DNA of 64,000 nt from Octopus vulgaris. Lineage: Eukaryota. Positions within the stretch are counted from its first letter, which is position 1. Each line of letters begins with the position of its first letter. Location: the NCBI GenBank assembly GCA_951406725.2, contig OX597817.1:93434001-93498000 (forward strand), read 5' to 3'. The notes below the pieces were generated by a model. The model worked only from the letters and a program-made list of their open reading frames with translations, did no database searches and was not told where the DNA came from. Below, piece by piece: positions 1 through 58,640 of the stretch. The position numbers and the translations under genes are program-made.

Positions 1-170
1 TAACAACAACAACAACAGCAACAACAACATCGAAAAATACCTTAGGAATGAGAACCCAGGTTCGAAATTTCCCCAAGACACCTGAAGATGGCTGGAGGGT
101 ATATCAGCCGAAACGTTGTGTTAACAGCAAACAAGATGAGGACAAATATCCGTCGAATGTAAATAATGTA
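1..170 (+). mobile_element. Right arm of a tRNA-head/hammerhead palindromic element (same family as 44323-44873), cut by the window edge
   Basis: (AAC)n followed by gaaaaataccttaggaatgagaacccagg...gtaaataatgta, closely matching 44740-44875. Confidence 0.8.
76..122 (+). ncRNA. Minimal type-I hammerhead ribozyme (Penelope type)
   Basis: Stem I gacac/gtgtt; core CTGAAGA 82-88; stem II ggctg/cagcc; GAAA 110-113; palindromic mini stem III ACGT; GTT cleavage triplet. Confidence 0.75.
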
Positions 171-261
171 AAAAATGTTCATTTTGTTTCGAAAAATTAA
201 TTTAAAAAGCAAACATGGCGAAGTCAGCCTCGCTGAGGGACATGGAAGAGGAGGTGAGTAC

Positions 262-3033: not shown

Positions 3034-3409
3034 AAACTGAAATGCGAAAAGTTTGTTTGTTTGTCTGGTTTTGTCATTGAGAACGGGTTAAAGGCCACTA
3101 GATCCCGTCGGATTGACTCCAAAATTTACAGGGACATGTAAAATGAGGTGACGATGCCAGTGGGCTAGGTTAGAAATCCCCATCTTAAAAGGTGTCGTTG
3201 CTAGGGCCAAAAACGCACTTTGACAAGACGACTCTCATTCTTTTATGTATCTGTTTTCCTCCGTCACTCACTCTCTTTCCTCCCTTCCCATCACTTTCAG
3301 TATATAACGTTGTTTCACGGCGTCTATCTCCCTTACCTTCACTTTCTCTTTATAACGTCCTCAAACGGCGTTCTGTATCTCCCCCTCCCCGCCCTCGACA
3401 GCGCTTTCA

Positions 3410-5992: not shown

Positions 5993-6066
5993 CGTATACA
6001 TATGTATATATAAGTATATATATATACATACATATATATGTATATACACATACATATATACATATG

Positions 6067-6106
<40 letters not shown>

Positions 6107-6132
6107 TATATATACATATATATATACATATA

Positions 6133-6188
<56 letters not shown>

Positions 6189-6878
6189 TATGTATATATA
6201 TATATATGTATATATATACATATATATATGTATATATTAATAAAAAAGAATTCCAACCTTGTCTGATTTTCACGTTTTATTTACAATCTTATAATGATAT
6301 ATTATAAGATAATATATATATTGAATAAAATATATATATAAATATTATATACTAGTACTTTCATATGAATTCTATCTTCGGGTTATGTAGTAGTGTTGAC
6401 AGTATGCTTCACAATTTTTGACTGTAGCAAGATGAGTGATTCTGTGCTATAAATACAGCTGGGTAGGCTCCAGAGTGCTAGGTTTTGCAAACTGTATTCT
6501 GACCAATCAGTGTGTAGTATCACTCAATTACTTAAGCTGATTGGTTGGTTGAGCTGATTGGTTTAGGCATCATGCTTTGTTGGACAGGTCAAGAGTCCTG
6601 TATCTTGACCCTGGCCGAAGCAGCAATTGTTGGGTTATTTTTAGAAATGTTGTAAATATCCTTTGTCAGAGATTTTTATATTTTTATATTTCAATTGTCA
6701 TCATCATCATTGTCAGCACCTTAATTATTGTTGCTAGTGGTGATGGTGGTGGAAATAGAGCTTTTAACCCTAAATAAGATAATTTTCCTGCTATCTTCGT
6801 CTTGATCACCTTTAGTATTGTTGTTGTTGTTAGTGGTCATGGTCGTAGCAGTGGAAGTAATACCTCTAAGTATTATTA

Positions 6879-9800: not shown

Positions 9801-9890
9801 CCTGGTCGTTACGATGAAATTTCCATTAGAATTCTTTCGGATTCTGTTAATTTTGTTTGTTGCTTTCCAGACATGTTGGCATATACACAA
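6879..9890 (-). pseudogene. Penelope RT + GIY-YIG polyprotein split by 1-bp homopolymer indels
   Basis: ORFs 6879-8246, 8565-8870, 8948-9481 and 9387-9890; 6879-8246 is identical in protein to the C-terminal part of 10194-11957. Confidence 0.85.
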
Positions 9891-10078
9891 TAGGAATATA
9901 GATATATATATATATGGGTGTGTGTGATTGTGTATAGAAGAATATATTAATAAAAGAATTCCAACCTTGTCTGATTTTCACGTTTTATTTACAATCTTAT
10001 AATGATATATTATAAGATAATATATTATAATTGAATAAAATAAAATGAAATAGTAGAATGTTAAATATTCATTCTGAT

Positions 10079-10123
10079 TGAACTAGTACTTTCATGCATT
10101 GAATTTTGCAATCTTCGGGTTCA
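10079..10123 (-). ncRNA. pLTR hammerhead ribozyme (CCGAAGA core variant)
   Basis: Near-exact reverse complement of 12452-12496. Confidence 0.65.
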
Positions 10124-10193
10124 TGTAGTAGTGTTGACAGTCATGCTTCACAATTTTTGACTGTAGCAAAATACCCGCTATAAATATAGACCA

Positions 10194-11957
10194 GTGCTAG
10201 GTTTTGCAAACTGTATCATGAAAAAGATCAACAACCTGATTTCAACACACCACAACTCACTTACGGATAATGAAAAAGACTACATCACCAATTTTGAACC
10301 AAAACCCAGCAACTTCTACGGCTTACCAAAAATACACAAATCAAAAAACATTCAACAGGCAGTAAAAGAACAAGAAAGTGAGTACATAAAATTATTACAT
10401 CCAAAAGACCTAAAACTTAGACCTATTATAGCTGGTCCAGCATGCCCTACACACCGTCTAAGCAATTTTATTGAGATTGTTTTGAAACCACTATGTACTT
10501 ACATACCAAGTTTCATCAGGGATGACATCGACTTCCTGTCCCATCTTCCCAAAACAACAGAAACAAATTCAGTTTTGCTAAGTTTTGATGTGGTAAGCCT
10601 CTACACCAATATTCCACACGATTTAGGAATAAAGGCGATTAAATACTGGTTAGAAAAACATAGAGAAGTGATTCCCAGCAGATTCACAGTGCCATTTATA
10701 TTAGACACAGTCAAACTTATTCTAGAAAATAACACATTCTTCTTCAATGGAAAGAATTACATCCAAATTAGAGGCACGGCGATGGGAACGAGGTTTGCTC
10801 CCGTTTACGCCAACTCTGTAATGGGATACTTAGAAGAACAACTCTACCAAGAGGTGGAGGTAAACTATGGCACTGGATTTAGAAAGTATATTGAAAAGGC
10901 ATGGAAGAGATACCTAGACGACTGTTTCATAATCTGGACAGAATCTCTAAATACTCTGGAAGAGTTCAATATCCTCCTGAACAACCTACACCCATCTCTC
11001 AAATTTACAAAGGAGATGAGTAGTACCAAATTACCATTCCTGGATATAATGGTAATTAAAAAAGACACCACCATCACCACAGATATATACTATAAACACA
11101 CAGACACACATCAATACCTAAATTTTAAGTCGTGCCATCCACCACATACAAAACGTAACATCCCATACTGCCTAGCCAGAAGAATTTGTACTATTGTAGA
11201 AGATGCAAATATCAGGAACAAACGCCTAATAGAACTAAGAGAATTTTTGCTCAAACAAAAATACCCATCTCTACTTATAGAAAATGGCATACAGCGGGCT
11301 ATAAAAATACCTATACAACAACTTAGGACAACCCAAGGAAGAGGAAAACAAGAACAAGTCATACCATTCATAGTGACACACAACCCATGTCACCAGAATA
11401 TCTTCAACATTGCCAAAGCAAACCTACCAATCATTGCCCAAAGTAATGAATTAAAAGACATAATCAAGGATCGAGCTATGGTGCTTAGTAAAAGACAGCC
11501 TAAAAACTTGAAAACATTACTAACAAAGGCAAAATTTGACCTCAGCAACAAAGACCAAACATTCACGGTATCTAAATGCAATGATAGCCGATGTGGCACA
11601 TGCCAATTCATACATACCGGTCAATATATAAACACAAAAACCGGGAAAATATTCACAAACGCGAATATGAACTGCAAAAGCAGAAATTTAATTTACTGCA
11701 TCAAATGCCCAAATTGTGAAGAAATATATGTAGGTCAGACGGGAAACGCACTATTAGAACGCTCACGTGTACACCGGCAACAGATTAGAGACCCAGAGGT
11801 CCGTCAGATACCTTTGAGTAACCACCTAGCAACATGTGGTCGGAAAATATATATAATATTTCCATTCTACAAATTACACAGCCCAAGTGAAATCGAGAGG
11901 AAAATCAGAGAAAAGAATTTTATTGATAAATTCGAACCCAAGCTAAATAAGCAATAA
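10194..11957 (+). CDS. Penelope (Neptune-type) reverse transcriptase + GIY-YIG endonuclease, 5'-truncated; first ~8 codons are junction sequence
   Basis: FYGLPKIHK, RPIIAG, SFDVVSLYTNI, RYLDD, LPFLDI, KCNDSRCGTC, NLIYCIKCPNC..YVGQTG. Confidence 0.92.
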   Translation: MLGFANCIMKKINNLISTHHNSLTDNEKDYITNFEPKPSNFYGLPKIHKSKNIQQAVKEQESEYIKLLHPKDLKLRPIIAGPACPTHRLSNFIEIVLKPLCTYIPSFIRDDIDFLSHLPKTTETNSVLLSFDVVSLYTNIPHDLGIKAIKYWLEKHREVIPSRFTVPFILDTVKLILENNTFFFNGKNYIQIRGTAMGTRFAPVYANSVMGYLEEQLYQEVEVNYGTGFRKYIEKAWKRYLDDCFIIWTESLNTLEEFNILLNNLHPSLKFTKEMSSTKLPFLDIMVIKKDTTITTDIYYKHTDTHQYLNFKSCHPPHTKRNIPYCLARRICTIVEDANIRNKRLIELREFLLKQKYPSLLIENGIQRAIKIPIQQLRTTQGRGKQEQVIPFIVTHNPCHQNIFNIAKANLPIIAQSNELKDIIKDRAMVLSKRQPKNLKTLLTKAKFDLSNKDQTFTVSKCNDSRCGTCQFIHTGQYINTKTGKIFTNANMNCKSRNLIYCIKCPNCEEIYVGQTGNALLERSRVHRQQIRDPEVRQIPLSNHLATCGRKIYIIFPFYKLHSPSEIERKIREKNFIDKFEPKLNKQ

Positions 11958-12670
11958 TAATAATACTTAGAGGTATTACTTCCACTGCTACGACCATGAC
12001 CACTAACAACAACAACAATACTAAAGGTGATCAAGACGAAGATAGCAGGAAAATTATCTTATTTAGGGTTAAAAGTTCTATTGCCACCACCATCACCACT
12101 AGCAACAATAATTAAGGTGCTGACAATGATGATGATGACAATTGAAATATAAAAATATAAAAATCTCTGACAAAGGATATTTACAACATTTCTAAAAATA
12201 ACCCAACAATTGCTGCTTCGGCCAGGGTCAAGATACAGGACTCTTGACCTGTCCAACAAAGCATGATGCCTAAACCAATCAGCTCAACCAACCAATCAGC
12301 TTAAGTAATTGAGTGATACTACACACTGATTGGTCAGAATACAGTTTGCAAAACCTAGCACTCTGGAGCCTACCCAGCTGTATTTATAGCACAGAATCAC
12401 TCATCTTGCTACAGTCAAAAATTGTGAAGCATGACTGTCAACACTACTACATGAACCCGAAGATTGCAGAATTCAATGCATGAAAGTACTAGTTCAATCA
12501 GAATGAATATTTAACATTCTACTATTTCATTTTATTTTATTCAATTATAATATATTATCTTATAATATATCATTATAAGATTGTAAATAAAACGTGAAAA
12601 TCAGACAAGGTTGGAATTCTTTTTATTAATATATTCTTCTATACACAATCACACACACCCATATATATAT
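10215..12670 (+). mobile_element. Inverted 5'-truncated copy of the same Penelope element
   Basis: Near-identical reverse complement of ~6235-8620. Confidence 0.9.
12452..12496 (+). ncRNA. pLTR hammerhead ribozyme (CCGAAGA core variant)
   Basis: tgaac-CCGAAGA-t-tgca/tgca-t-GAAA-gta-CTA-gttca; stem I tgaac/gttca; palindromic stem III AGTACT. Confidence 0.65.
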
Positions 12671-12681
12671 ATATCTATATG

Positions 12682-12713
<32 letters not shown>

Positions 12714-12714
12714 C

Positions 12715-12886
<172 letters not shown>

Positions 12887-12958
12887 GTATATATATATAT
12901 GTATGTATATATATATATACACATATATATATATACATATATATATGTATATATATAC

Positions 12959-13036
<78 letters not shown>

Positions 13037-14229
13037 ATATACATAGTAGTAGTAACAGAAAAGAAGAATTTCGGTTGTCCCCACGTTGTGGATTGTAATG
13101 TATATAAGAAATTAAAAAAGGAAAATACGCACACTTACATGGTTATAATATAATTTTTAATGTATCGGCTGGTTTCGCAATCGCTATTCATGATATTGTT
13201 AAGGGGGTCAATTCAGGGACAGTGCTTGCGACCGACTTTTGTGAATAAATCCTTTGTCCTGTCAGATTCAGGTGGATTGATAAGTTCTTGGGAGACCTTC
13301 GACCCTTTTCAGGTGAAAGAAAGTTCGAGGAAACACCCCTTAAAAAGCAGGAGATGTGAGTCTGTTGGACAGTTGAGGACAGGGCGAGTTAGTAACAGGT
13401 TGTTTCTGCTGTGACAGTGAACGTGAAAGAGGAGGACAGGCAGAGATGATTAAGGAACTGAGAGAGTTTGCGGCGAGAGGGCATAGCGATTACGGTAGTA
13501 GTTTTCTGAAATTGTTGCAGACGGGAAAGAACGTTCGGTAAAGTTTTGTTTGTGTCTTTTGGTTGTTGTATTTTGATGTGCTGAACTAAAAAGAGAATTG
13601 ATGTGAAAAAAAAGAAGGAAAGAGGAAAAAGAAAGAACATTGCTAAAGAGAAAAAGAAATGAGATTATAAAGAACATTGTGAATTGTGTTACAGAGTTGT
13701 TGATACGTGTTGAAAAAGAAAGAGAAAGACTTTAATGTGATTTGAACATTGAACTGTATCGTTAATGTGAACATTATTTGTTTTGATTCGACGCGAACTG
13801 TTTAAATGCTTTGATTTGTTGTTTTCTTGTTTTCTTGCATTTTCTTTGATTTATTTGATGTTGTAATAATTGTATAAACTGTTGTTAAATGTAAGCCAAA
13901 TTACCTTTCGCCGTGTCTCTCTGTATCTCTTCCTCCTGTTGTTGTTGTTGTTATCTCCGGTCGCCGGCTGCCGAGTTTGCTGCCGCCTTTCCCCCACCGA
14001 ATTCTCTCTCTCCCTGGGTCCGTGGCGAATTCGCCGATTGATCGGGCCGGTAAATCGTCGTCGCTCGACTTGGTAGGGTCCCGGGTTTTCCGAAGAGTTT
14101 GAGCGACGACAGGTGAGGTTCGTAACAATATAATGTTTAATTTATATGAATATATACTTTTTCTTAAGAAGAAATTTGGTCAATGTTGTTTGTAATGAAA
14201 TTCACGAGTGAATTATTTTACAAGTTGAC

Positions 14230-15598
14230 CAGTAAAGGGAGGTAATTGGTTGTTATTATTGTTATTGTTGTGTGTAAGGGAGATAACTGTTTAGGTTTTG
14301 GGTGGGGAATAAATATGTGTACAGAAAGGAGACAGGTTTAAAAAAAGGGGACCTTGTTTAGTAGGGGATTTCTGTACAGTGATGTGATATGTAAAACTAT
14401 AAAAGTTAGTTATGCGTGCATATTAAGATGCATTTGTATTTTTCAATGAAAAAAGTTTCTTTATTTAAGCGTTCTAGTTCAGAGATTGTGTCTTTGCACT
14501 GGTAGAAGGGGAAGACTGTAAAATTTGGTTTGATGTTACCTGCACATTTTTCTATGTGTTCACTAAGAGGAATTTGTCTGTATTGCGGGAAACGGATTTG
14601 CTCCTTATGCAGAGTGATTCTCTTCCTCAAAGTTAAACTCGTTCGTCCAATGTACTGATGACTGCAACCCGAGCAGGTTATTACATAAATTAGGTTCTCA
14701 GAGGCACAGGTGAAATTAGTTTTAATTGTGAACCTCTGTCCTTGTTTGAAAAGGAAATCCGAGCCTTCAAGCAGGTTGAGGCAGGTGCCACAGTTCGGGC
14801 GTCCACATTTTTCAACCGTTGGTTTCGTGGTTGTTTGGTAAAGCTTCGCATTTGTTAGTAGTCTCCTTAGCGATTTGTCTTGATTTTTTGCATTTGATGA
14901 GTTTGTGTGTTTTCAGGATGTCGTTCATTTTTGGATCTCTACTTAGTAAAGGGAGAGTTTGCACAATAGTGTTGAATGCCTCACTGTTTCTGGGGTTGTG
15001 TGTTGATATAAAAAGTAATGCTTTGGTTTGAGGTGTAGTGCTCTGTTTTTTTTTTTTTGTTCTTAGTGATTTTGTGTCTAATTCTTTGGCACGTTTAATT
15101 CCCTCGTCGATAAGAGAGGGTAGATATGATCTTTCAATAAGTGTTGTTTTGAGGTCTTGAAGACGAAGGTCCCGAGTTGTTCTATCAGACACTATTGTGC
15201 AGATCCTTTTTGCTAAGTTAAAAGGGATGTTTATTTTTATGTGTTTCGGGTGACATGAGTTAAAAAGAAGATATTGTTTTGAGACAATATTTATAATATA
15301 TTTTTTATAATAAATGTCAGGTATGATTTCATTATTGACTATTTTTATCATGATGTCTAAAAATGGAAGTTGTTCTTTATTATACTCCATTGTGAATTGA
15401 ATGTTACTATTTATGTCATTTAGTGTTGTTTTGAAATACAAAAGTTTGTCCATATTCTCCTTCCAGATGATAAAACAGTCATCCAGGTATCATTTTTTTA
15501 AACCTGTCTCCTTTCTGTACACATATTTATTCCCCACCAAAAACCTAAACAGCTATCTCCCTTACACACAACAATAACAACCAATTACCTCCTTTTAC
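14230..15598 (-). mobile_element. Second Penelope family, 5'-truncated, with an inverted 3'UTR copy at the truncation point
   Basis: ORFs 14812-15453 (LPFLDI, NSCHPKH..NIP.NLAKRI) and 14406-14630 (GIY-YIG tail); ~15495-15598 is the reverse complement of ~14231-14345. Confidence 0.88.
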
Positions 15599-15619
15599 TT
15601 ATATATATATATTTATACA

Positions 15620-15691
<72 letters not shown>

Positions 15692-15773
15692 TATATGTAT
15701 ATATATATATGTATATATATACATATATATATGTATATATATATGTATATATATACATATATATATGTATATG

Positions 15774-15845
<72 letters not shown>

Positions 15846-15944
15846 CATATATATATGTATATGTATATATATATATGAATATATATATATACATATATAT
15901 ATACATATATATATGTATATATATATATATGTATATATATACAT

Positions 15945-15984
<40 letters not shown>

Positions 15985-16022
15985 GGAAGTTGTTCTTTAT
16001 TATACTCCATATATATATATAT

Positions 16023-16077
<55 letters not shown>

Positions 16078-16113
16078 TATATATGTATATATATACATAT
16101 ATATATGTATATG

Positions 16114-16176
<63 letters not shown>

Positions 16177-16177
<1 letters not shown>

Positions 16178-17520
16178 TGCAACTGGCAAACTTCCAAGAA
16201 AACTGAAGGAAGGTAAAATATGCCCTATTCATAAAGGAGGTAGCAGAGCGGAGGCCAAGAACTACAGACCAATCTCTCTGACTTTGCAAAGGCCTTTGAT
16301 AAAGTCGATCATGGAATGATATGTCACAAACTGCGTGATCTTGGCATAGTTGGAAAATTGGGAGAATAGCTTCATGACTTTCTGAAGGATAGATGTCAGG
16401 TAGTAGTAGCCAATGGGGCCACTTCCATTAACACGCAATAAGTGAGCGGTGTTCTGCAAGGCACTGTTTTGGGACCACTACTGTTCATAATGGCCCTCTC
16501 AGACATGCCCTCAACCACAATCACAAGTTATGCAGATGATACAAAAGTTTCACAGGCAATACAGAACCCTGAAGACATTATGCGCCTGCAATGTGAGCTG
16601 GACAAAATATACAAGTGGGCTGAAAAGAATAGCATGCAGTTCAATGCTGAAAAGTTTCAAGCTTTATGCTATCAGCATGCAAAACTAAATGCAATACCCA
16701 ATAAATACACTGGACCTGGAGGGATTGCAATCCCAGAGGCACAATCAGTGCGAGACCTGGGTATTTACATGAGTGATGACGCAACCTTTCATGTGCATGT
16801 TGCTAAATTGGCAATGAAATGTAGGCAGCTGACCGGATGGATTCTTAGAACCTTTAGAACAAGAGAACAAGAAACCATGATGTTCCTCTGGAGGACACTT
16901 GTCCTAAGCCACTTTGACTATTGCCCTCAGCTATGGTCACCATCCAGTGTCAAGTTAATCACAGAACTTGAGACGATCCAACGAAGCTACACGATGAAGA
17001 TAGCCTCTGTGCAGCATATAAGCTATTGGGAAAGACTCAAGAGATTGAGACTCTATTCCTTGGAGCGTAGGCGAGAGAGATATGCCATAATATACATCTG
17101 GAAGATCCTGGAAGGACTTGTCCCAAACTTTGGCATCGAGAGTTACACAAATGCCAGAACTGGGCGCCACTGCATAGTGCCAAGGACTCCAAATTTGCCA
17201 TCAAGTTATAGGACAAGATACTGTGATAGCCTGGGCTTCAGAGGCCCACAGCTCTTCAATATCCTCCCGAAGAACCTGAGAGACCTGCATGGGGTGGATG
17301 CAGACGTCTTTAAAATATAACTGGATCTCTTCTTGTCAGGTGTTCTAGATGAACCAACTTCACTGCATGAGCTGCAGATGAGGGCAGCTGCATCGAACTC
17401 TCTCATGCACCAAATGGCAATTGCTAAAAAGCATTCGTGAAGTAAAATCATGTAGCAACACCAAATGGCGGTGCCCCAGCATGGCCACAGCTCGTGAGCT
17501 GAAACTAGATAAAGATAAAG
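16177..17520 (+). mobile_element. CR1-like LINE, 3' RT portion with internal deletions
   Basis: SGVLQGTVLGPLLF, YADDTK, YWERLKRLRLYSLERRRER; (GATAAA) tail; same family as 23170-25350. Confidence 0.9.
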
Positions 17521-17548
17521 ATACGTATATATATATATGTATATATAT

Positions 17549-17587
<39 letters not shown>

Positions 17588-17662
17588 TACATATACATAT
17601 ATATATATACATATATATATATAGACATATATATATATACATATATATATACATATATATAC

Positions 17663-17695
<33 letters not shown>

Positions 17696-17857
17696 CATAT
17701 ATATATACATATATATACATACATATATATACATATATATACATATATATATATACATATATATTTATAAATATATACATATATACATATATATATATAT
17801 ACATATACATATATGTATATATATATATATGTATATATATATATACATATATGTATT

Positions 17858-17889
<32 letters not shown>

Positions 17890-17944
17890 CATATATACAT
17901 ATATGTATATATATATATACATATATATATATATGTATATATAT

Positions 17945-18004
<60 letters not shown>

Positions 18005-18007
<3 letters not shown>

Positions 18008-18800
18008 TAGATATGTTTCGACTAATGATTGGTCCAGGCCATGTCTAACTTAATAGCACCATCTGATAGGATTATTTGAATCCTGTTTAAGTCAAGTTTT
18101 GTTTATGGTCCATTCAAGTAGAGATTTTTTGTTGGGTGAGTTGTATCCAATTATGGGTGGCTTATCTGGTATTCCTTGAAGGAATCTATCTAGACTCCGT
18201 TTAAAGTTGATGGGATCCTGTTCCTCTTTGATCTCTTTCGGGACAATGTTATATAGGGCAGGGCCTGTTGAGGAAAAGAAATTATGTTGTAGTGTCCATG
18301 TATGCTGTGATCTTGAATTGGGCAGGGGACGTATGGCCCGTGGTCCTAGTCTTGGATTAACCTTGACGCTAATGTTCAGGTCGTTTGGGCAAAGTTGGCG
18401 GTATATTCTCCACATCGTACAAATGATGTACCGCTCACGGCGACGCCGGAGAGAGTAGAGTTTCAAGGCTATAAGGCGATCCCAATAATCGAGAGCAGCC
18501 ATGCCTTCAATTCGTTTAGTGAGTGCTCTCTGAGGTGATTCAATCCTCGAGATGTTTTCTCTTGTATGGGGAGACCACAGAGGGCAGCAGTATTCGAGGT
18601 GTGGCCGTACAAAGGAGGAGAAAAGTGGTATGATGACACCTTGTTCTCTGGACCGGAAAGTTCTTAAGATTCAGGAACTCATCCTACGAGTTATATCGAC
18701 CTTCTTGTTGATGTGTGCACTCTAACTGAGATCGTCATCAACAATTACACCCAGGTCTCGGATATTGTTAGAGGCTGTGAGCGGTTCCCTTGAAGGAAGA
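18005..18800 (-). mobile_element. CR1-like LINE 3' fragment (different family)
   Basis: ORF 18092-18502 with YWDRLIALKLYSLRRRRERY and FKRSLDRFL. Confidence 0.85.
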
Positions 18801-18814
18801 TATATATATACATA

Positions 18815-19327
18815 TCTATATATATAAAACTGTAGTTGTGTGAGTGTCTGTCCCCTTCGATTTAGATTCCTAACTACTCCCACATTTTGCGGTGCAGTTT
18901 AACCAAATTCGGGTATCTTATAGTCGTGATTCATATCGAGCCCGTCTGAGTATTAGCGCGCGTCTACGATGAGTCTACGATTTTAAAAATAATTTAACAT
19001 CATTTTTTTATTCCATTTTAATGCATAATTTTTCGTGTGTCGATGGCGGCGGATTGGCGTCCATGGTCACACCTGCACCTGTTTGCTTCTCCCCCTTCTT
19101 CCCTCCCTCGTGAAGCTGTGGGGAAGGGAGTGTAAGGAAATCAACGTCGTAAAGCGTTGTCAAGGAGACCAGCGTTCTTTTAGAACAACGACTTCATGGC
19201 TTGAAGACACCAAAACAGAAATGGCTAAGAAAGCCCGAATTGGCATCTATAAGGGAAGTAACTCTCTAAAAATGCTTATATAGTTATTTCCCTTACAAAC
19301 CCGAGCAACGCCGGGCGATACTGCTAG
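18815..19327 (+). mobile_element. Non-autonomous Helitron
   Basis: A|TC 5' start; subterminal hairpin cccgagcaacgccggg; CTAG|T 3' end; no TSD. Confidence 0.85.
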
Positions 19328-19579
19328 TATATATATATATATATATATATATACATACAAGCAATAATAAATCTCTGATCGAGATGTAAACAGTAAGCGC
19401 TCGACAACGTAAAGTATACTAGCCATCTTAATATGGCTAACCACTGGGGGTGGGGGTGTTACTGTAGCTTTTTAGCCCCAGGAGATCATCGTCTCCAGCC
19501 GGCTTTAGACACAATCCTGTACCCTTTAATGATATTCGCAAAGGGAGGTCATATACATATGACCTTCCTTATATATATA

Positions 19580-19621
<42 letters not shown>

Positions 19622-19731
19622 TATATGTATATATATATACATATATATATATGTATATATATATACATATATATATATGTATATATATACATATATATAT
19701 ATATATGTATATATATATACATATATATATG

Positions 19732-19765
<34 letters not shown>

Positions 19766-20153
19766 CATATATATATGTATATATATATACATATATATAT
19801 GTATATATATATATACATATATATATATATACATATATATATATATGTATATACATGTGTATATTCAAAGAAACATTCTTTACTTTGTAGTTTGATCGTA
19901 GGTGATCTATTTCTAGCATACGGCCGACTACCTAAAACACACACGGACACAAAAACACACACGGACACACAGAGACACACACACACACCTCCACAGAATG
20001 ACCATAGAAAGTGTGACCCCAAATGACATTTGTCAGGCCAACCTACGCACAACACACACTCAGTGACATCAAAATGGACGGCCAAAGTTCTTATAAAACC
20101 ACAGGAGGTCCAGTAGACCAACGGAAATAACACTTCTTCACTCTCAGATATAA

Positions 20154-20216
<63 letters not shown>

Positions 20217-20479
20217 TACACATACACACATGTTTTCTCTGTCTCACTTCCTCCTCACCCACTACTACGAAACTATAAAATGTTCAAACTCCCCACAACT
20301 GATTTGATTTGAAAAGCCCACTAGATTGGGAGAAAGCGCTAATCCGAATGATATGATATGATATATATGTAAAAAATGTAATATATAAATAAATATCTAC
20401 AAATATGAACCATCTGATCTGATTACCTCATTTTTTCTAATATATAATACCTGTACATCATCTCCAAACCTTCCGATAC

Positions 20480-20514
<35 letters not shown>

Positions 20515-20515
<1 letters not shown>

Positions 20516-20949
20516 GTCCTGTTATTACCATTATTGTTTTTTGTATTTATATTCGTGTGGCATCGTCCGTTTTTCTGTCCTTGTTTCGTATACACTCAAT
20601 CCTTTTTCCAAGAAATCTAATGCTCGTAGCTTAGTTATTCCTTGGGGCTGGCCGGATCGGAGCGATCTCAAGATTAATCAGCCGAAATTGCGAGGATGAT
20701 CCGGTTCTTGACTGACGATTGAAGGCTTCGAATGTCCCGTCCGTGTTTTTTGTATCGTCTTCTAAATGTTTTACGTTCTTTTCCCAGTTTGTATTTTTCT
20801 ACATATAATATATATAGCGGCGCCCGTACCCTCTTTGGCCTTGTATGTAAGTACACATTCCTTTAAATTTGGTACGACTCTATAACACTGTCTCTCTCTC
20901 CTACATTTCTCTGCCTTTCACACTTTGCACTCTACTTTGATCTGTCTCT

Positions 20950-20989
<40 letters not shown>

Positions 20990-21660
20990 CTCCTCCTCCT
21001 TTTCTCTTTTCTTGCCTCTGATTCTTTGGTCTCCTCTTCCCCCACTCTCACATTTCTCCGTCTTTCTCACTTTGCATCTCACTGATTCTGTCACCAAGCC
21101 GATCCTTGGCACGCTCTCTTTCTTCTCCTCGCTTTAATTCCTTCTTTCTCTCTCATCTCCCCCCTTTGGTGCCTTCGTCTCTCTTTTTCTCTCTCTCTTT
21201 GATTCCTTTACCCCCTTTTGTTTTTCTCTCTCTTCTTCCTCTCACGTGACCGCTAGTCAACCAGCCTTTCGGTTTCTAACCAGCGCCACGAGAACATCGT
21301 TGTCTTCGTCTGCCGAAAAAAGCAAATCTAAATGTACTGTCTATAGTCGTAAGACACACGCTGTTTTTGTCCTGTTATTACCATTATTGTTTTTTGTATT
21401 TATATTCGTGTGGCATCGTCCGTTTTTCTGTCCTTGTTTCGTATATATTCTATCCTTTTTCCAAGACATCTAATGCTCATAGCTTAGTTTTTCCTTGGGG
21501 CTGACCGGATCGGAGCGATCTTAAGATTAATCAGCCGAATTTGCGACGATGACCCGGTTCTTGACTGAAGATTGAAGGCTCCGAATGTCCCGTCCGTGTT
21601 TTTTGTATCGTCTTCTAAATGTTTTACGTTCTTGTCCCAGTTTGTATTTTTCTACATATA
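20515..21660 (+). mobile_element. Non-coding element with two ~290-bp direct repeats around a CT-rich spacer (pLTR-like)
   Basis: ~20515-20810 matches ~21370-21660; degenerate hammerhead-like pieces ggctg..cagccGAA and CTGA(C/A)GA. Confidence 0.6.
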
Positions 21661-21675
21661 ATATATATATATATG

Positions 21676-21721
<46 letters not shown>

Positions 21722-21844
21722 CATGTATATATATATATATACATGTATATATACATATATGTATACATATATATATATATACTTATATATATATATACGT
21801 ATATATATATACGTATATATATATATACATATATATATATATGT

Positions 21845-21876
<32 letters not shown>

Positions 21877-22089
21877 GTATGTATATATGTATATATATAT
21901 GTATATATATATATATGTATATATATATATGTATATATATATGTATATATATATATATGTATATATATATACATGTATATATATATACATGTATATATAT
22001 ATATATACACATATATATATACATGTATATATATATATATATATACATATATATATACACATATATATATACATATATATATATACATA

Positions 22090-22130
<41 letters not shown>

Positions 22131-22160
22131 ATACATAAATATATATACATATATATATAT

Positions 22161-22196
<36 letters not shown>

Positions 22197-22199
<3 letters not shown>

Positions 22200-22532
22200 A
22201 AGGGTAAAGACCCCCTTCGGTCATGAATGACCATGGGATTGCACCTAGAAAGTTACCCTCCCAGGCACAAGTCCGGGCAAGGTAGTTTATGGATGACCAG
22301 CAGTCGCCCATGCATACCAGCCTCCCCTCTCTACACCACTGATGTTATCCAAGGGAAAGACAAAGGTCGATACAGCTTGGCACCAGTGATGTCGCAACTC
22401 ATTTCTACAGTTGAGTAAACTGGAGCAACGTGAAATAAATGCCTTGCTCAAGAACACAACACGCAGCCCGGTCCGGGATTCGAGCTCACAACCTGACGAT
22501 CGTAAGCTCGACGCTCTAACCACTGAGCCACA
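22197..22532 (-). mobile_element. tRNA-derived SINE
   Basis: Minus strand A box tggctcagtgg and B box-like gctcgaatccc. Confidence 0.8.
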
Positions 22533-22544
22533 TATATATATATA

Positions 22545-22957
22545 CTCTTTAATCTTTTACTTGTTTCAGTCATTTGACTGCAGCCATGCTGGAGCACGGC
22601 CTTTAGTCGAGCAAATCGAGCCCGGGACTTAATCTTTGTAAGCCCAGTACTTATTCTATCGGCCTCTTTTGCCGAACCGCTAAGTGACGGGGACGTAAAC
22701 ACACCAGCATCGGTTGTCAAGCAATGCTAGGGGGGCAAACACAGACACATAAACATACACACACACACATATATATATATATATACATATATACGACAGG
22801 CTTCTTTCAGTTTCCGTCTACGAAATCCACTCACAAGGCATTGGTCGGCCCGGGGCTATAGCAGAAGACACTTGCCCAAGATGCCACGCAGTGGGACTGA
22901 ACCCGCAACCATGTGGTTGGTTAGCAAGCTACTTACCACACAGCCACTCCTGTGCCT
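22545..22957 (-). mobile_element. tRNA-derived SINE with internal microsatellite (abundant family)
   Basis: Head ggagtggctgtgtggtaag...ggttcagtccc; tail gactgaaacaagtaaaaga; copies near 34.5, 45.7, 49.9 and 63.7 kb. Confidence 0.85.
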
Positions 22958-22963
22958 ATATAC

Positions 22964-23018
<55 letters not shown>

Positions 23019-23032
23019 CATATATATATACA

Positions 23033-23108
<76 letters not shown>

Positions 23109-23117
23109 CATATATAC

Positions 23118-23148
<31 letters not shown>

Positions 23149-23169
23149 CACATATATATATATATACAA

Positions 23170-25350
23170 ATATCTGGCCTGAATGTCTCTCCTCGCCAGA
23201 CATCGACGTGAAACTTCAACAATTCACGTCTGTAATGCAAGCCATATGCTACAAATGTGTCCCAGAGAGAAAGGCCACTGTACACAAGAACAAAATCCCC
23301 AGAGAGAGGAAAATTTTAATGACACGGCGTACAAAAATTTCAAATCGCCTAAACAAACAAATTGAAAGCAGTGAAAAGTCCCGCCTGAAAATGAAACTGT
23401 TGGAAATTGAAAAATGTCTACAACTCTCCCATGAAAAGGAAAGAGCAGACAAAGAAGCCTGGGCTATAGACAACATAAAATCTAACCCCAGAGCTTTCTA
23501 CAGGTATGTCAAAGAAACAGCTACGGTGCACTGTAGGATAGGGCCACTCCTTGAAAAGGATGGCACACTCACAGGAAATCCAATGAGGGTAAGTGAAATA
23601 CAGGATGAGCAATTCAAGAGTGTTTTCACTCCACCCCTTGGGCATTTCCAAATCACCAATCCAACTGACTTCTTTACCACTGCAGATATAAAATCAGAGG
23701 CAGCGATGATTGATTACATCAATATAAAGGAAAACGATGTAATAAAGGCTATAGATGAAATGAAAACAAACTCAGCTACTGGCCCCGATGGATTCCCAGC
23801 AATCCTCCTAAAAGTATGTAAGAGAGTCCTAGCAAGACCACTGCAGTTCCTCTTTCAGAGCTTCCTTGCAACTGGCAAACTTCCAAGAAAACTGAAGGAA
23901 GGTAAAATATGCCCTATTCATAAAGGAGGTAGCAGAGTGGAGGCCAAGAACTACAGATCTATCTCTCTGACCTCACACATCAGCAAGGTCATGGAACGAA
24001 TAGTCAGAAGGAAACTGATCACCTTCCTTGAAGAAAATGACTTGCTGCCTGACACCCAACATGGTTTCCGACCAGGAAGAAGCTGCTTAACTCAGCTCCT
24101 ACAACTCTATGACTGGGTGCTGAAACGACTGCTCAACCACTCAAATGTGGAAGTGATATATCTCGACTTTGCAAAGGCCTTTGATAAAGTCGATCATGGA
24201 ATGATATGTCACAAACTGCGTGATCTTAGCATAGTTGGAAAACTGGGAGAATGGCTTCATGACTTTCTGAAGTATAGAAGTCAGGTGGTAGTAGCCAATG
24301 GTGCCACTTCCATTAACACGCAAATAGTGAGCGGTGTTCCGTAAGGCACTGTTTTGGGACCACTACTGTTCATAATGGCCCTCTCAGACATGCCCTCAGC
24401 CACGCAGAGAGCCACGATCACAAGTTATGCAGATGATACAAAAGTTTCACAGGCAATACAGAACCCTGAAGACACTAAATGCCTGCAATGTGAGCTGGTC
24501 AAAATATACAAGTGGGCTGAAAAGAATAGCATGCAGTTCAATGCTGAAAAGTTTCAAGCTTTATGCTATCAGCATGCAAAACTAAATGCAATACCAAATG
24601 AATACACTGGACCCGGAGGAATTGCAATCCCAGAGGCACAATCAGTGCGTGACCTGGGTATTTACATGAGTGATGACGCAAACTTTCATGTACATGTTGC
24701 TAAATTGGCAATGAAATGTAGACGACTGGCCGGATGGATTCTTAGAACCTTTGGAACAAGAGAACAAGAAACCATGATGTTCCTCTGGAGGACACTTGTC
24801 CTAAGCCACTTTGACTATTGCTCTCAGCTATGGTCACCATCCAGTGTCAAGTTGATCACAGAACTTGAGGCGATCCAACGTAGTTACACGATGAAGATAG
24901 CTTCTGTGCAGCATATAAGCTACTGGGAAAGACTCAAGAGATTGAGACTCTATTCCTCAGAGCATAGGCGAGAAAAATTACACAAATGCCAGAACTGGGC
25001 ACCACTGCAGAGTACCAAGGACTCCAAATTTGCCATCATGATGTAGGAGAAGATACTGTGATAGCCTGGGCTTCAGAGGCCCACAGCTCTTCAATATCCT
25101 CCCGAAGAACCTAAGAGACCTGCATGGGGTGGATGCAGATGTCTTTAAAATATAACTGGATCTCTTCTTGTCAGGTGTTCCAGATGAACCAACTTCACGG
25201 CAGGAGGTGCAGATGAGGGCAGCTGCATCAAATTCTCTCATGCACCAAATGGCAATTGCTAAAAAGCATTCGTGAAGTAAAATTATGTAGCAACACCAAA
25301 TGGCGGTGCCCCAGCAAGGCCACAGCTTGTGAGCTGAAACTAGATAAAAA
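23170..25350 (+). mobile_element. CR1-like LINE, 5'-truncated ORF2 pseudogene
   Basis: [44 protein letters not shown]; stop codon at 24342-24344. Confidence 0.92.
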
Positions 25351-30580
<5,230 letters not shown>

Positions 30581-40490: not shown

Positions 40491-43400
40491 GAAGAAGTCA
40501 CTCACCTTGGTCCTCAAGCAGGTCGATTGATCTGATCTCCTCCTAGGAAGTTTCAAAAGGCCTTTGTAAAGTATTTCTATTTAACATTTTTGTTAAAAGC
40601 CTGACGTAAGAGAGACATTCTTTCACTTTAACTCTGTATGTCTGAGTTTCTGTAATAATGGTGTCTTTAGATCATCAAACCCTTCCCTATTGATGCTAAG
40701 ATTCTATTTACTACCCCCTCCATCAATTCAGTGTGTGCTTTTTTTAAGCAACAGTAAAGTTGATATATTTTACAGTTGTGACTGATTTTGTCTGTTTTTT
40801 TTTTCTGCGATTGTAATTTGAGTTTTGTTTGTTTTTGTTGCAATCGTGTGATTAGAGGACATCTACCATCCCTTCAAATAAATTAGCATTTATCTTGGAG
40901 CAATTATCTTTTGTCTCCTACATCATTCTTCCATCTGTTATTAGCCTGTTCATTTTTTTTTTGGGGGGGGGGTATTTACTTCATTGCTCAGTAAGATCTC
41001 TGACTCAGGGAAGACTGAAGTAGCTGTGAGTGGGGCTGGTTATTCATGTTTATGTTCTGCTGAGTATCAATAACAATGTTGAGAAATATTTTTTGGGTGG
41101 GAGTTTTGTCAGAGCCTGTTGTTGCTTATGTATTAGTTATTTCAGATTTTGCTGCTGCTCATTAATGCGTTTAAAGGGTGGGGGTTGCATTTTGCCCTTT
41201 AATCCAAGTAGAAATCCCTCAAATAGTTAATGGCACCTGGACTTTCTCCCTTCAACTGCCAAAAATAGCTAAGCTTCATTTGGTAGTTTAATTTGGAGCA
41301 AGAGTTCTATTCCATCCCCAACCTATTTTACTTTTCTATTTTCAAGTATTTCTAGAATATTTGTTTCATCAACTGAAGGCGAAAATATCACCACTATTAG
41401 CCACAAGATTCTTATATCTAGCAGCATGTCCACAACTCTCACCTTCATATACCTGCCCAGATAAGTTGGCATGAAGATGAAATTCATCTTCAACAGAATC
41501 ATGGAATGGCTCCTAGCTTTGACTCACATGGCAAATCTGACGTCTACTCTGCCAAATTGTTTTCCAATTGCTCCCCTGTAGATTTCAGGCATCTTTCTAC
41601 CCATGCATATGTGAGCATCTCATCCTTTAACATCCGTTTTTCATGCTGCCATGGGTTGGACTTTGTGTTTTTATATTTATGCTTTATTATGTTACTGTAT
41701 GTGCTTTTCTTTTCTATAATCTCTGGTATGTCCAACAAAATTGTTTTGTTATAAATCCTGATATTCTAACAGATGATAGAACCACCTACCACAGAAAGCA
41801 ACAGTGACAGTGTTGGAGTTAGCAATAGTTTTTCCTGTATTCAGTTAACATATAGCTGAATTTGTCTTGCAATTGTTTTCTCATGAGATGGCAAATTTTC
41901 ATTGAAAATATATACGTATGCTATTGCTGTTGTAGTTGTTACAATTCTGTTTTTATTATTGCACTATCCTTTAGATTATTATCATTTGTGAAGTTCACAT
42001 GTGTGTTGCTGCTGTGGCAGAAACAGTATGATTCAAACTTGTTACATGTAACATTATTGTATCACTACTCTCTCCATTATTACATCATTTTCTCTTCTTT
42101 CTCAACTTGTCTCATTGTGTCTATTTGTCTCCACAGTCAATGTGGGAAAATTTACATCCGTCTTGAAATTTTAAAAGGAAAAAATTATTTCTTTTCAAAA
42201 AAAAAATTACATCAGTAGAACCTCTGATATTGTGTGGGGAACTTTATACACAGAACAGACTCACCAACACTTAGCAAATTCCTTCTCGTCGATTATACAA
42301 ATATCAAATATAAATAGAATTCCATTCAAAGTGAAGCAAGTCAATATTTTTTTACCCGCTTCTTTTATAAATTCCTCAGAGCTGAAGTTAAGGGTGGCTT
42401 CCTTGAATGCCACCAATAATTAATAATTATTTCAAATTTTGTTACAAGAGCAGGAACTTTAGACGGAAGGATGTCAGTTGATTACATCAGCACCAGTTCT
42501 TAACTGCTACTTTATTTTATTGATCCTGGAGGATCTCAGTTCAAATTCTCTGTGGGATTTGAACTGAGATGGAAAGCATGAAAAATATGCTGACAGCATT
42601 TTCCAATACTTCACTGATTCTGCCAATCCATCACTCTTAATAATTATAATGATGATTTTTCACATAGGTACATGGACACATTGCATTAGAGCATATATCA
42701 ATTTGATGAAAAGCAAAGTCAACTGCAACAAGATGCAAAGGGACATAACTAAATCCAACCAACCAAATGTGACAACCGCAGACCTTAATAAAGACTAAAC
42801 ATAGATATGAAGTCTCAAATGTGAAGGAGGAGGGTAAGGTGTAATCTTATATCAACTCCAGTATTTATCTGGTAATATATTTTATCAACCCCAGAATGAT
42901 GTAAAGCAAACTTAATCTCAGTAGGATTTGAACTTAATGAGAAAATACACCACAAAGCATTTTGTTTGATGCTCTAACAATAACAAATTGATAAAAAAAT
43001 TTTTTTAAACAATAAAAATGTCTTTAAAAACAAAAGACAATTTAGAAAATTTTTTTTAATAAAAATTTTAATAAATAAAAAAAGTTTATCTTATTTAATT
43101 TCTTTGTTAATTGTTTGCATGAGTATGTGTACATTTGTATATATGTGTATTGATTTTTGTGCCTGTACAGATGTGTGTGTATGCACATAAATGTGTTGGT
43201 CTGTGTATGCATGCATGTGAATGTGTTGCTGGCTGTGTTTTGCCAAGTGCATCTGTGCAGTTATGTGTGTGTATGTTACTTTGTGTGTGCATGTACATGT
43301 GTGTGTGCTACTCTGTGTACATTTGTGTTATTACACGTGTGTATGTGTGAGAGTGTCACTACATGTGTGTGTGTGTGTGAGGAATGATATTAAAAATGCT

Positions 43401-44322
43401 ATGAATCCTAAAATGAGAAAAGATTGGTAAAAAATAACTGGATGGCAACAGATGATTTTTTTGGTGTTGTTTTGAAATTTATTTTAATTCTTAATATAAT
43501 ATTAGTAAATATCAATTTCTTTTTCTCTTTTTTCAATTGATGGAATAAATAAACTACAGTGGTGTGATGTGTGTGAAATTAATGTGGCATAAAATGAAGT
43601 GGTGTGAAGTAATGGATGTGGCATGGTGTGTGATACTGCTGATTAGAACTAGAGAATTAATGAGAGAGAGATATTTTGAGAAAAGAAGAGAAAGAAAAAG
43701 AGAGAGAGAGAGAGGGAGACAATAGAACAGACAAACTGCAGACATAGATACACTCTGCTCTAGCTTCCAGAAAGACAACACTAAAATTCAGGATGCTTGC
43801 CAAGGTACAACTATGTACCTCACCAGTGACTGATAAAGACAAAAAGACAACCAACACACACACTCACATACACACTGTACATCAATTCCTGCATGACCTA
43901 TACAGTTTGCTTCACACAAACACTAAAGACTATGGTCTCAGGTATGCGAGTCCAACTGTATGTAAGGGCCTACTTACCACATACACTTATAACAACAGTA
44001 TCCATTAAAAGAAATTAGATGAGGAGATGGAAGTTGAAGATGAAATACATTTGATGTTATGGTGTAGGGAAGGGCAGGAAGAAAGTTTCTGGGACTTTGG
44101 CTTAGAGAACTTCCAGGCAGGACTCCAAAATGATGAGGGGTGGGAGCTGGAGATAGTGTCAGAAGGAAAAGGTGTGAAAATAGAAAGGTGACTGTTGCTA
44201 CAAAAGAGGAATACACAGCAGGTTGGTTTTCTTCAGGATCTGCCAATAATTGGGGAGATGTTTCTGGCAGAGTCTAGCTTAAGTCACCATGGTAGCTGAA
44301 ATGAAAAATAGACTGGTTTTAT

Positions 44323-44873
44323 AATACAGTTCTATATTTAAGAGATGAGAAATTATGTACATTATTTACATTTGACGGATATTTGTCCTCATCTTGTTTG
44401 TTGTTAATGCAACGTCTCAGCTGATATGCCCTTCATCAGGTTGTCTTGGGGAAATTTCAAACCTGGTTTCTCATTCCTAAGGATTTTTTCTATGTTATTA
44501 TTATTATTCAGGTTACTGCCTGGAATCAAACTTGGAATCTTGGGGTTAGTAGCCCGCATTCTATGCCATATGCCTGTGGGCATATGGCATAGTGGTTAAA
44601 AGCGCAGGCTACTAACATCAAGATTCCAGGCAGTGACGACGACGACGACGACGTCGTCGTCCTCGTCATCATCATCATCATCATCATCAACATCAACAAC
44701 AACATCACCATCACCATTCTTTATAAAAGAAGCGGGTAAAAAGAAATACCTTAGGAATGAGTACCCAGGTTTGAAATTTCCCCAAGACAACCTGATGAAG
44801 GCTGGAGGGTATATTAGCCAAAACATTAACAACAAACAAGATGAGGACAGATATCCATCAAATGTAAATAATG
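44323..44873. mobile_element. Palindromic element: two head-to-head tRNA-head + microsatellite + hammerhead units, ~14-bp TSD
   Basis: Centre ctatgccatatgcc-tgtg-ggcatatggcatag; arms are reverse complements; flanks tagactggttttat (44309-44322) and tagattggttttat (44874-44887). Confidence 0.8.
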
Positions 44874-45735
44874 TAGATTGGTTTTATTAAAACATAGAAC
44901 TCATTAGTGGTTCATGGAAAAAGTTACACAAAAGAAGAGAATAGTGAACGAAAGATACAGGAAATAGAAAAAGAGAAAAGAGTACAAGTGTAGTGGCCAT
45001 TTAGAGTTATTCTCATTTTATCAAATTACCTAGGGCCATGTCTGTCTCATTCTGCTGGAAATAAAGTAGGAAAACTGCTATGCTGATGATGCTAAGTGAG
45101 GCAGAAATATGCAACTACAGCTGTCCTTTATCTCCAGACACACAGACTGTCTTTTCCTTAATGGTGCATCAGTTTTGGAAAAGTCTCAATTCTCGAGATC
45201 ATCTCTCCTTATTTGGAGTTGGTCTCAAGTGCCACCAAGTGATTGTTTCGCCTACACTGGAAGCAGAGATATTTTCCTTAAAACAAGAATAATTTTGTAT
45301 AGTATTAACACTTTGTAACATATGAAGTTTTGACAGAAGATTATGATTTAGATCACTTTAAAACAGAAAGTATACATCAGGGTAGTCTCGAATGGTTCGG
45401 CATGAAAAGTGTTCAAATTACATGCCCATGGCCACTACAAAGTTATTTCTCTTGGTTCAATTCAAATATATATATATACATACATATACATACATATGCA
45501 TACATATACACACATCCACATTTGTATAATGTATGTTTGTCTCATTTTCTTGAGATCATGCAACAGATATAACCAAGCATCACCACCATACAAGCTGTGT
45601 GTTTCTGTAAAAACATGTCCAATCATGAGAAAATATTGTGTAGCTGAAAAACTACTTTAAAAATTTCATATGCTCCATGCAAGTATGGAAAAGCCAATGT
45701 TAAAATGTAGAAAAGAGGGGGGGGAGATAAAAGTA

Positions 45736-58302: not shown

Positions 58303-58640
58303 TCGTAGCACTCTGTCGGTTACAACGACGAGGGTTCCAGTTGATCCGATCAACGGAACAGTCTGCTTGTGAAATTAACATGCAAGTGGCTGAGCACTCC
58401 AGAATCGAGGAGATTCAGTGTGACACAAACCCTTTGAAATACAGGTACAACAGAAACAGAAAGAAAGAGTAAGAGAAAGTTGTGATGAAAGAATACAGCA
58501 GGGTTCGCCACCACTCCCTGCCGGAGCCTCGTGGAGCTTTAGGTGTTTTCGCTCAATAAACACAACGATGGGTCTGGGAATCGAAACCGCGATCCTACTA
58601 CTGCGAGTCCGCTGCCCTAACAACTGGGCCTCTGCACCTC
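58303..58640 (-). mobile_element. tRNA-derived SINE
   Basis: Minus strand head ggcccagttgttagggcagcggactc...ggtttcgattcccagacc. Confidence 0.7.

Follow-up and report, generated by a model that had tools for sequence, protein, structure and literature searches.

A palindromic repeat in the octopus genome as paired ends of a Penelope element with a tRNA-derived unit in its pseudo-LTR

In the 64,000-nucleotide stretch of Octopus vulgaris DNA analysed here (the window), positions 44323-44873 hold two inverted arms, each with a tRNA-like head, a trinucleotide tract and a hammerhead ribozyme core. What is this sequence, and which machinery put it there? An earlier note, made from the letters of the window, saw an RNA polymerase III (Pol III)-driven, ribozyme-bearing SINE that parasitises Penelope retrotransposons and integrates as a head-to-head dimer. 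We find that a single insertion made the palindrome, in which two 5'-truncated Penelope ends are joined head to head. Each arm is the 3' end (pseudo-LTR, pLTR) of an autonomous-type Poseidon-clade Penelope element and not a separate SINE, the Penelope assignment being near certain. Our full account, in which a tRNA unit captured by those ends acted as a Pol III promoter and gave rise to SINE-like copies, has in our estimate a probability of about 0.65.

The palindrome and the anatomy of its family

At the locus itself, much of the earlier description holds. The arms meet at 44576/44577, in keeping with the centre near 44576 given before, their paired segments in the window sequence are 93-95% complementary, and the flanking 14-bp direct repeat with one mismatch is a target-site duplication (TSD) that confirms a single insertion event (Table 1). 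The A box of the right arm is present where it had been placed; the B-box-like motif assigned to the left is found in that arm only, the right arm having lost its own; both arms have an anticodon-like loop; and the hammerhead core CTGATGA reported for the right arm recurs on the minus strand in the left, with GAAA decayed in both. The picture of a ~550-bp palindrome needs amending in one respect: the arms are inverted, but they are asymmetric, with a 33-bp extension on the left arm only. Taken singly, the two heads score 2.7 and 5.0 bits on a profile of host tRNAs, within the shuffle range, and Rfam and ARAGORN called no tRNA and no hammerhead in the palindrome. As a side observation, a 23-bp piece of the right arm's extra segment (44720-44742) has an exact opposite-strand match 2.3 kb away (42349-42371), possibly a templated insertion or another repeat.

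Table 1. Features of the palindrome and of the second family insertion (window positions)
Feature	Positions	Strand	Remark
Left target-site duplication	44309..44322	none	14-bp direct repeat, 1 mismatch relative to right copy
33-bp Penelope tail, left arm only	44325..44357	-	One-sided tail also in 40/45 two-arm insertions
Left arm ORF N-terminal region, ATG at 44474	44358..44494	-	Decayed minimal hammerhead, core 44439-44433
Left arm (AAT)n tract	44495..44508	-	Sequence
Left arm tRNA-derived head	44509..44575	-	B box 44531-44522 retained, A box deleted in part
Junction of the two heads, at the element's short inverted repeat immediately upstream of tRNA position 1	44568..44585	none	Sequence
Right arm tRNA-derived head	44578..44635	+	B box deleted; A box 44585-44595 and anticodon-like loop 44609-44615 present
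Right arm expanded trinucleotide tract and short extra segment	44636..44743	+	Sequence
Right arm ORF N-terminal region, ATG at 44757	44744..44875	+	Decayed minimal hammerhead, core 44792-44798; end is the no-tail site
Right target-site duplication	44874..44887	none	~2 bases common to element end
Second family insertion	1..176	+	Trinucleotide tract, ORF N-terminal region, intact hammerhead core 77-122; without tRNA head

A second member of the family opens the window. Its hammerhead core is intact, as had been claimed for positions 1-170; the predicted ribozyme cut falls after 117, and helices I and II fold as expected, with a folding z-score of just -0.9. This copy is a two-arm insertion as well, its short inverted tail arm lying just beyond the window edge.

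How general is this anatomy? Exact genome-wide counts in the thousands bear out the expectation of many related copies. Family samples were drawn from a single contig, within its first 14-22 Mb, with an exact 20-mer demanded, and positions are numbered from tRNA-like position 1, which is window 44578 in the right arm. From 81 merged segments at the start of contig C1 we mapped 156 arms, whose 3' ends cluster at +241/+247 and +272/+274. There are 55 head-to-head pairs, 45 of them with both 3' ends mapped; in 40 of these 45 an arm with the tail faces an arm without it, four pairs have no tail and one has two. A 10-16-bp TSD flanks 24 of the 45, compared with 9 of 267 mismatched flank pairs, and non-CpG variants are common to the arms at 7.7% within one insertion versus 2.4% between insertions (50 pairs), a slight excess compatible with either one template or two. 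Integration as a head-to-head dimer survives in part: inverted pairs with TSDs are found, but both arms reach the head in just 6 of the 40 tail/no-tail pairs. The 18-bp pattern of the junction has 749 exact matches in the genome, and its reversed control has none.

The head-to-head layout, which had seemed new, is not. Inverted arms are standard for Penelope in the available portions of PMC3846280 and PMC8557442, which describe inverted truncated copies, one-sided tails and TSDs. In the excerpts of PMC11167929, the PAc protein acts on both strands, cutting and extending them, and reverse transcription proceeds from two internal sites bounding the tail, on uncleaved RNA. Our two-arm pattern, with one tail in 40/45 pairs and a TSD in 24/45, matches those portions of the first two papers and the two start sites of the third. 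Two other classes were considered and set aside: a MITE (DNA transposon) is ruled out by the asymmetric ends, the variable arm lengths and the continuity with a reverse transcriptase (RT) ORF, and a non-LTR retrozyme by copy ends that lie away from the predicted cut and the rarity of direct tandems.

Of 143 arms, 37 retain an intact hammerhead core, which decays mainly at CpG; the predicted cleavage triplet is GUU. The predicted cut falls after +188 and marks neither end of the copies, whose 3' ends lie 53-86 nt past it.

The element behind the arms

From which element do such arms derive? The earlier note advised looking for an autonomous Penelope with the same 130-bp end, and we found one. 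The 144-bp end, run as a query against the genome (2.8 Gb, 227 contigs), gave 1313 candidates, of which 40 were scored and 30 fetched. At locus L022 a GIY-YIG-like frame lies directly upstream of the head, and its peptide, used as the next query, gave 2864 candidates, with 150 scored and 30 loci fetched, including the query's own. At 28 of these 30 GIY-YIG loci the ORF passes without interruption across its stop codon and a further ~30 nt to reach the same head; the hammerhead region follows downstream at 28 of 30. The element thus reads: ORF (RT, GIY-YIG), stop codon, ~30 nt, tRNA-like head, (AAT)n, the ORF start with a minimal hammerhead, and a 33-nt tail. Upstream walking gave full-length copies with the repeat at both ends (L140, L135), and pseudo-LTRs formed by partial tandems, with the ORF start inside, are found at L140, L135, L382 and L386. 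The ORF's ATG, at +119, falls within what had been described as a ~130-bp segment with a hammerhead; the hammerhead core is there, but the segment is the start of the element's own ORF.

The majority sequence of the family gives an open frame in which the motifs of RT and GIY-YIG are present. Its RT piece matches RVT_1 (E 2.4e-9); the GIY-YIG piece, for which Pfam returned no match to that family, was recognised by motif and homology. Homologues of the protein carry PF00078 and PF26215, and one is named GIY-YIG endonuclease. Identity is 38% over 735 aa to an 836-aa protein of Anolis carolinensis, which from its species and length is probably the PAc Poseidon of PMC11167929, and 58-75% to further relatives. 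Relative P0058 conserves the peptide that is read across the hammerhead, and contigs of three further organisms also span the ORF end and the head; the genome-contig search gave 7 loci, inspected in part, and a first metagenome scan and a viral scan gave no relatives. Membership in Penelope and in the Poseidon clade fits on each feature tested, and the proposal that Penelope machinery lies behind the insertion is upheld, the head and the 130-bp end both belonging to the RT/GIY-YIG element.

Several other repeats lie in the window. At 6001-12886 there is a different, young Penelope-type family as an inverted pair, its two 2.67-kb arms 96.6% identical, with open frames of 476 and 596 aa that hold RT and GIY-YIG motifs and are 29% identical to the family studied here; no tRNA-like head was found in its 3' region. 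A 312-aa open frame at 811-1749 appears, by its motifs, to resemble a Tc1/mariner transposase, and the stretches at 16442-17320 and 22731-25046 are presumably fragments of LINE-type reverse transcriptases, judged in the same manner. Positions 25400-30300 hold ~4.8 kb of nearly pure (TA)n, and on the minus strand a further pair of tRNA-like heads, at 22474-22531 and 58575-58629 (32.8 and 20.1 bits), probably represent other SINE families.

Might the short copies nonetheless be a separate non-autonomous tRNA SINE with master copies of its own, a parasite of Penelope? Copy numbers lend this idea some appeal. Across the genome, exact matches number 1080 immediately upstream of the head, 4372 within it and 8034 downstream; the match rates in ORF-bearing copies are ~62% upstream (28/45, 20-mer shifted one base), 20% in the head (9/45) and 33% downstream (11/33), and the corrected numbers suggest ~2,000, ~22,000 and ~24,000 arms, respectively. 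Short head-starting copies are roughly ten times as common as ORF-bearing ones, and 60 arbitrary 10-kb stretches (600 kb) hold six loci, all six without ORF 3' sequence; both estimates, from exact counts and from arbitrary stretches, point to 10,000-30,000 insertions. Short copies with intact boxes could, moreover, be secondary sources. Yet a SINE is non-autonomous and has only its 3' end in common with its partner, whereas here the head itself sits inside the autonomous element at 28/30 ORF-bearing loci. Furthermore, no position carries a base diagnostic between 79 short and 54 ORF-bearing arms, which differ by CpG decay, by deletions and at the arm-end column +242, and their median non-CpG divergence from the majority is similar (4.3% for short, 4.9% for ORF-bearing arms; P 0.08). 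We consider a separate SINE borrowing a Penelope tail quite improbable. These medians also indicate that the family is old; at the rate quoted in the accessible part of PMC13282606, its age would be, as a rough estimate, ~12-14 million years.

The tRNA-derived head and the origin of the copies

The derivation of the head from a tRNA, obscured in the single copies of the window, emerges from the family: once its CpG sites are restored, the majority head reaches 23.1 bits on a profile built from 10 host tRNA genes, where 1000 shuffles gave at most 5.7. The A and B boxes and their spacing are kept, and the cloverleaf does not form. The best host match is Arg-TCT (49/75 bases), among 30 tRNA genes of few isotypes. 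A separate observation is that locus L256 holds seven tRNA genes within 3 kb, six of them called Cys.

Where do copies begin? Among the first 78 arms on contig C1 with the exact downstream 20-mer, 40 reach +10; 29 of these end at -10 to +10, six at -30 to -11, and five run into the ORF. The end rate at the head is 5.4 per 100 nt, compared with 0-0.96 beyond the -30 to +10 zone, and many 5' ends fall at 0 to +4. When copies were selected by the head, 29 of the first 30 stopped no more than 25 nt upstream of it. Repeats leading into the ORF begin at the head in L382, L386, L010 and L026, with L364 reaching -181, and several copies jump from ORF sequence to a new unit starting at the head. Copies mostly begin at the head and are in this sense SINE-like in function, though not a SINE lineage. 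Direct tandems of head, tail, short ORF start and new head were also seen (L010:1140-1790, L026:1350-2070, L371, L379); they are apparent template jumps at the head.

What accounts for this common starting point? The tRNA-derived A/B-box unit of the pLTR likely served as a Pol III promoter, and transcripts that Pol III made from the pLTR likely templated most copies. Transcription would start ~5 nt before tRNA position 1 of any head-bearing copy and read through the repeat. The Penelope protein would nick both target strands 12-14 bp apart, and reverse transcription would begin on the uncleaved RNA at two internal sites, the tail end and the no-tail end. The two cDNAs would then run toward the RNA 5' end and join through a few complementary bases, in many cases at the small inverted repeat next to the head, where the 749 exact junctions lie. 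In this way the element would itself be the source of its SINE-like copies, with no need of a separate SINE lineage.

The same junctions can be read in another way, in which a Pol II-transcribed Penelope carries the tRNA piece as the passive fossil of a SINE in its 3' UTR, and ends arise where reverse transcriptase stalls at a hairpin or by fold-back on long tandem transcripts. All 749 exact sites have the junction centred on a hairpin, the available portion of PMC3846280 reads palindromes at Penelope inverted junctions as self-priming, and the small inverted repeat of the head could by itself favour stops or joins. A suitable precedent exists at L339:2440-2760, where a 320-bp tRNA-SINE lies in the Penelope 3' UTR of another animal and is missing from its sister L333; this one-off insertion also serves as a model for tRNA promoter capture. 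The stem, however, is just 4-5 bp, the hammerhead and the tRNA arms have low end rates, single-arm copies and template jumps, in which no fold-back is involved, likewise start at the head, and this reading leaves aside the retention of the A and B boxes and the absence of T4 runs. It is the main rival, and we regard it as unlikely.

Many 5' ends at 0 to +4 would also be expected if RNA ends were made at the head by an RNase P-type cut at a tRNA-like structure, or if Pol II happened to start there, and Penelope pLTRs typically hold promoters according to the excerpts of PMC6765202. But the acceptor and T stems do not form and the junctions include bases upstream of position 1, which makes this explanation highly improbable.

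With the captured Pol III promoter as our preferred reading, how far might such transcription extend? Circumstantial hints at Pol III come from the crowding of 5' ends at the head and from the T4 content. The majority unit lacks any T4 run, a lack that has P about 0.04-0.05 under codon shuffles, is accompanied by an absence of G4 runs and counts as one family-level observation. Across 24 non-independent copies of the family, observed/expected T4 is 0.13, versus 1.24 in 70 relatives, 14 of which have no T4 run at all; another Penelope family in the window has 9 T4 runs versus 3.9 expected. An A/B-box pair scored high in 2 of 45 relatives with 3' sequence, and the absence of boxes in the others is weak evidence because the same scan missed decayed copies of the family (L038/L150, z 1.6-2.1; L058, negative). 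The metagenome contig L287 (2760-3080) holds an intact tandem Poseidon-type element in which the stop codon and the hammerhead flank A and B boxes set 57 nt apart (0/300 shuffles), in the same order as in our family: A-box/B-box pair, short AAT run, minimal hammerhead. It has two T4 runs per 2.8-kb unit, and as L287 was examined because of the T4 lack, the link between T4 runs and boxes is post hoc and concerns one contig. A quick tree, with weak deep support, places L287 away from the family studied here. At 3059-3074 the same contig has a hairpin like the histone 3' stem-loop, with a weak Rfam match (E 0.14). A tRNA match in L284 was set aside, being outside the Penelope 3' end.

We can only tentatively suggest, as a possibility on the doubtful side, that an autonomous coding retrotransposon came to be transcribed end to end by Pol III from a captured tRNA promoter, that its 2.9-kb unit shed oligo-T terminators, that every head-bearing fragment acts as a SINE-like source, and that the arrangement had at least two origins among Poseidon-type elements (our family and L287). 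If full-length Pol III transcription were true, the 2.5-kb coding RNA would have to be translated independently of a cap. Three RNA-seq runs from a related organism speak neither for nor against Pol III: 0.07-0.09% of reads mapped, to both strands equally, 72-77% of the mapped reads ran on into unrelated sequence, and there was no start pile-up at the head.

Relation to known systems

A captured tRNA promoter in a terminal repeat represents a concrete route to SINE-like repeats inside an autonomous element, and the many copies with a fixed 5' stop provide a clean data set on Penelope inverted insertions with one-sided tails. Fragments of this kind may also sit misfiled as SINEs or MITEs in repeat libraries. 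In the published papers searched we found no autonomous Penelope with a tRNA-derived A/B-box pLTR.

The ribozyme itself offers no difference from what is known. As far as the excerpts of PMC4209133 go, the minimal hammerhead of metazoan Penelope-like elements (PLEs) has an extra base between 9 and 10.1, a G10.1-C11.1 pair, a palindromic 15.2-16.2 and a short helix I, and ours is of that type in all these features; the same excerpts describe opposite-strand hammerhead pairs 100-700 bp apart in Schistosoma. A single short repeat in which a hammerhead comes after a Pol III-type promoter is likewise familiar from Schistosoma Sm-alpha and Sj-alpha, which in the portions of PMC6765202 and PMC6155905 at hand are non-coding tandem repeats released by cleavage, whereas our family is the end of a coding element, arranged in inverted pairs whose ends do not fall at the cut. 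In Helenus and Cassandra TRIMs, a Pol III promoter derived from a small RNA lies inside the terminal repeat, its boxes kept and its structure decayed, much as here; these are non-autonomous LTR elements in the available text of PMC10886601, while ours is an autonomous-type Penelope. Animal non-LTR retrozymes are also short hammerhead repeats related to Penelope pLTRs, but the parts of PMC7229834 and bioRxiv 10.64898/2026.07.22.740005 available to us describe tandem arrays and circular RNA and mention no tRNA head.

The closest likeness is with Anolis PAc and the Adineta Pen2a EN+ PLEs. According to the accessible portions of PMC11167929, PMC3846280 and PMC8557442, these have the same ORF with RT and C-terminal GIY-YIG, the same ORF start in the pLTR beside the hammerhead, and the same inverted 5'-truncated arm, one-sided 30-40-bp tail, TSD and partial tandems. 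Those portions describe the promoter motifs of PLE pLTRs as TATA/Inr-like, with no mention of a tRNA-like unit. Unlike PAc and Pen2a, the family studied here has a pLTR that holds a tRNA-derived A/B-box unit, and it is there that most of its copies start.
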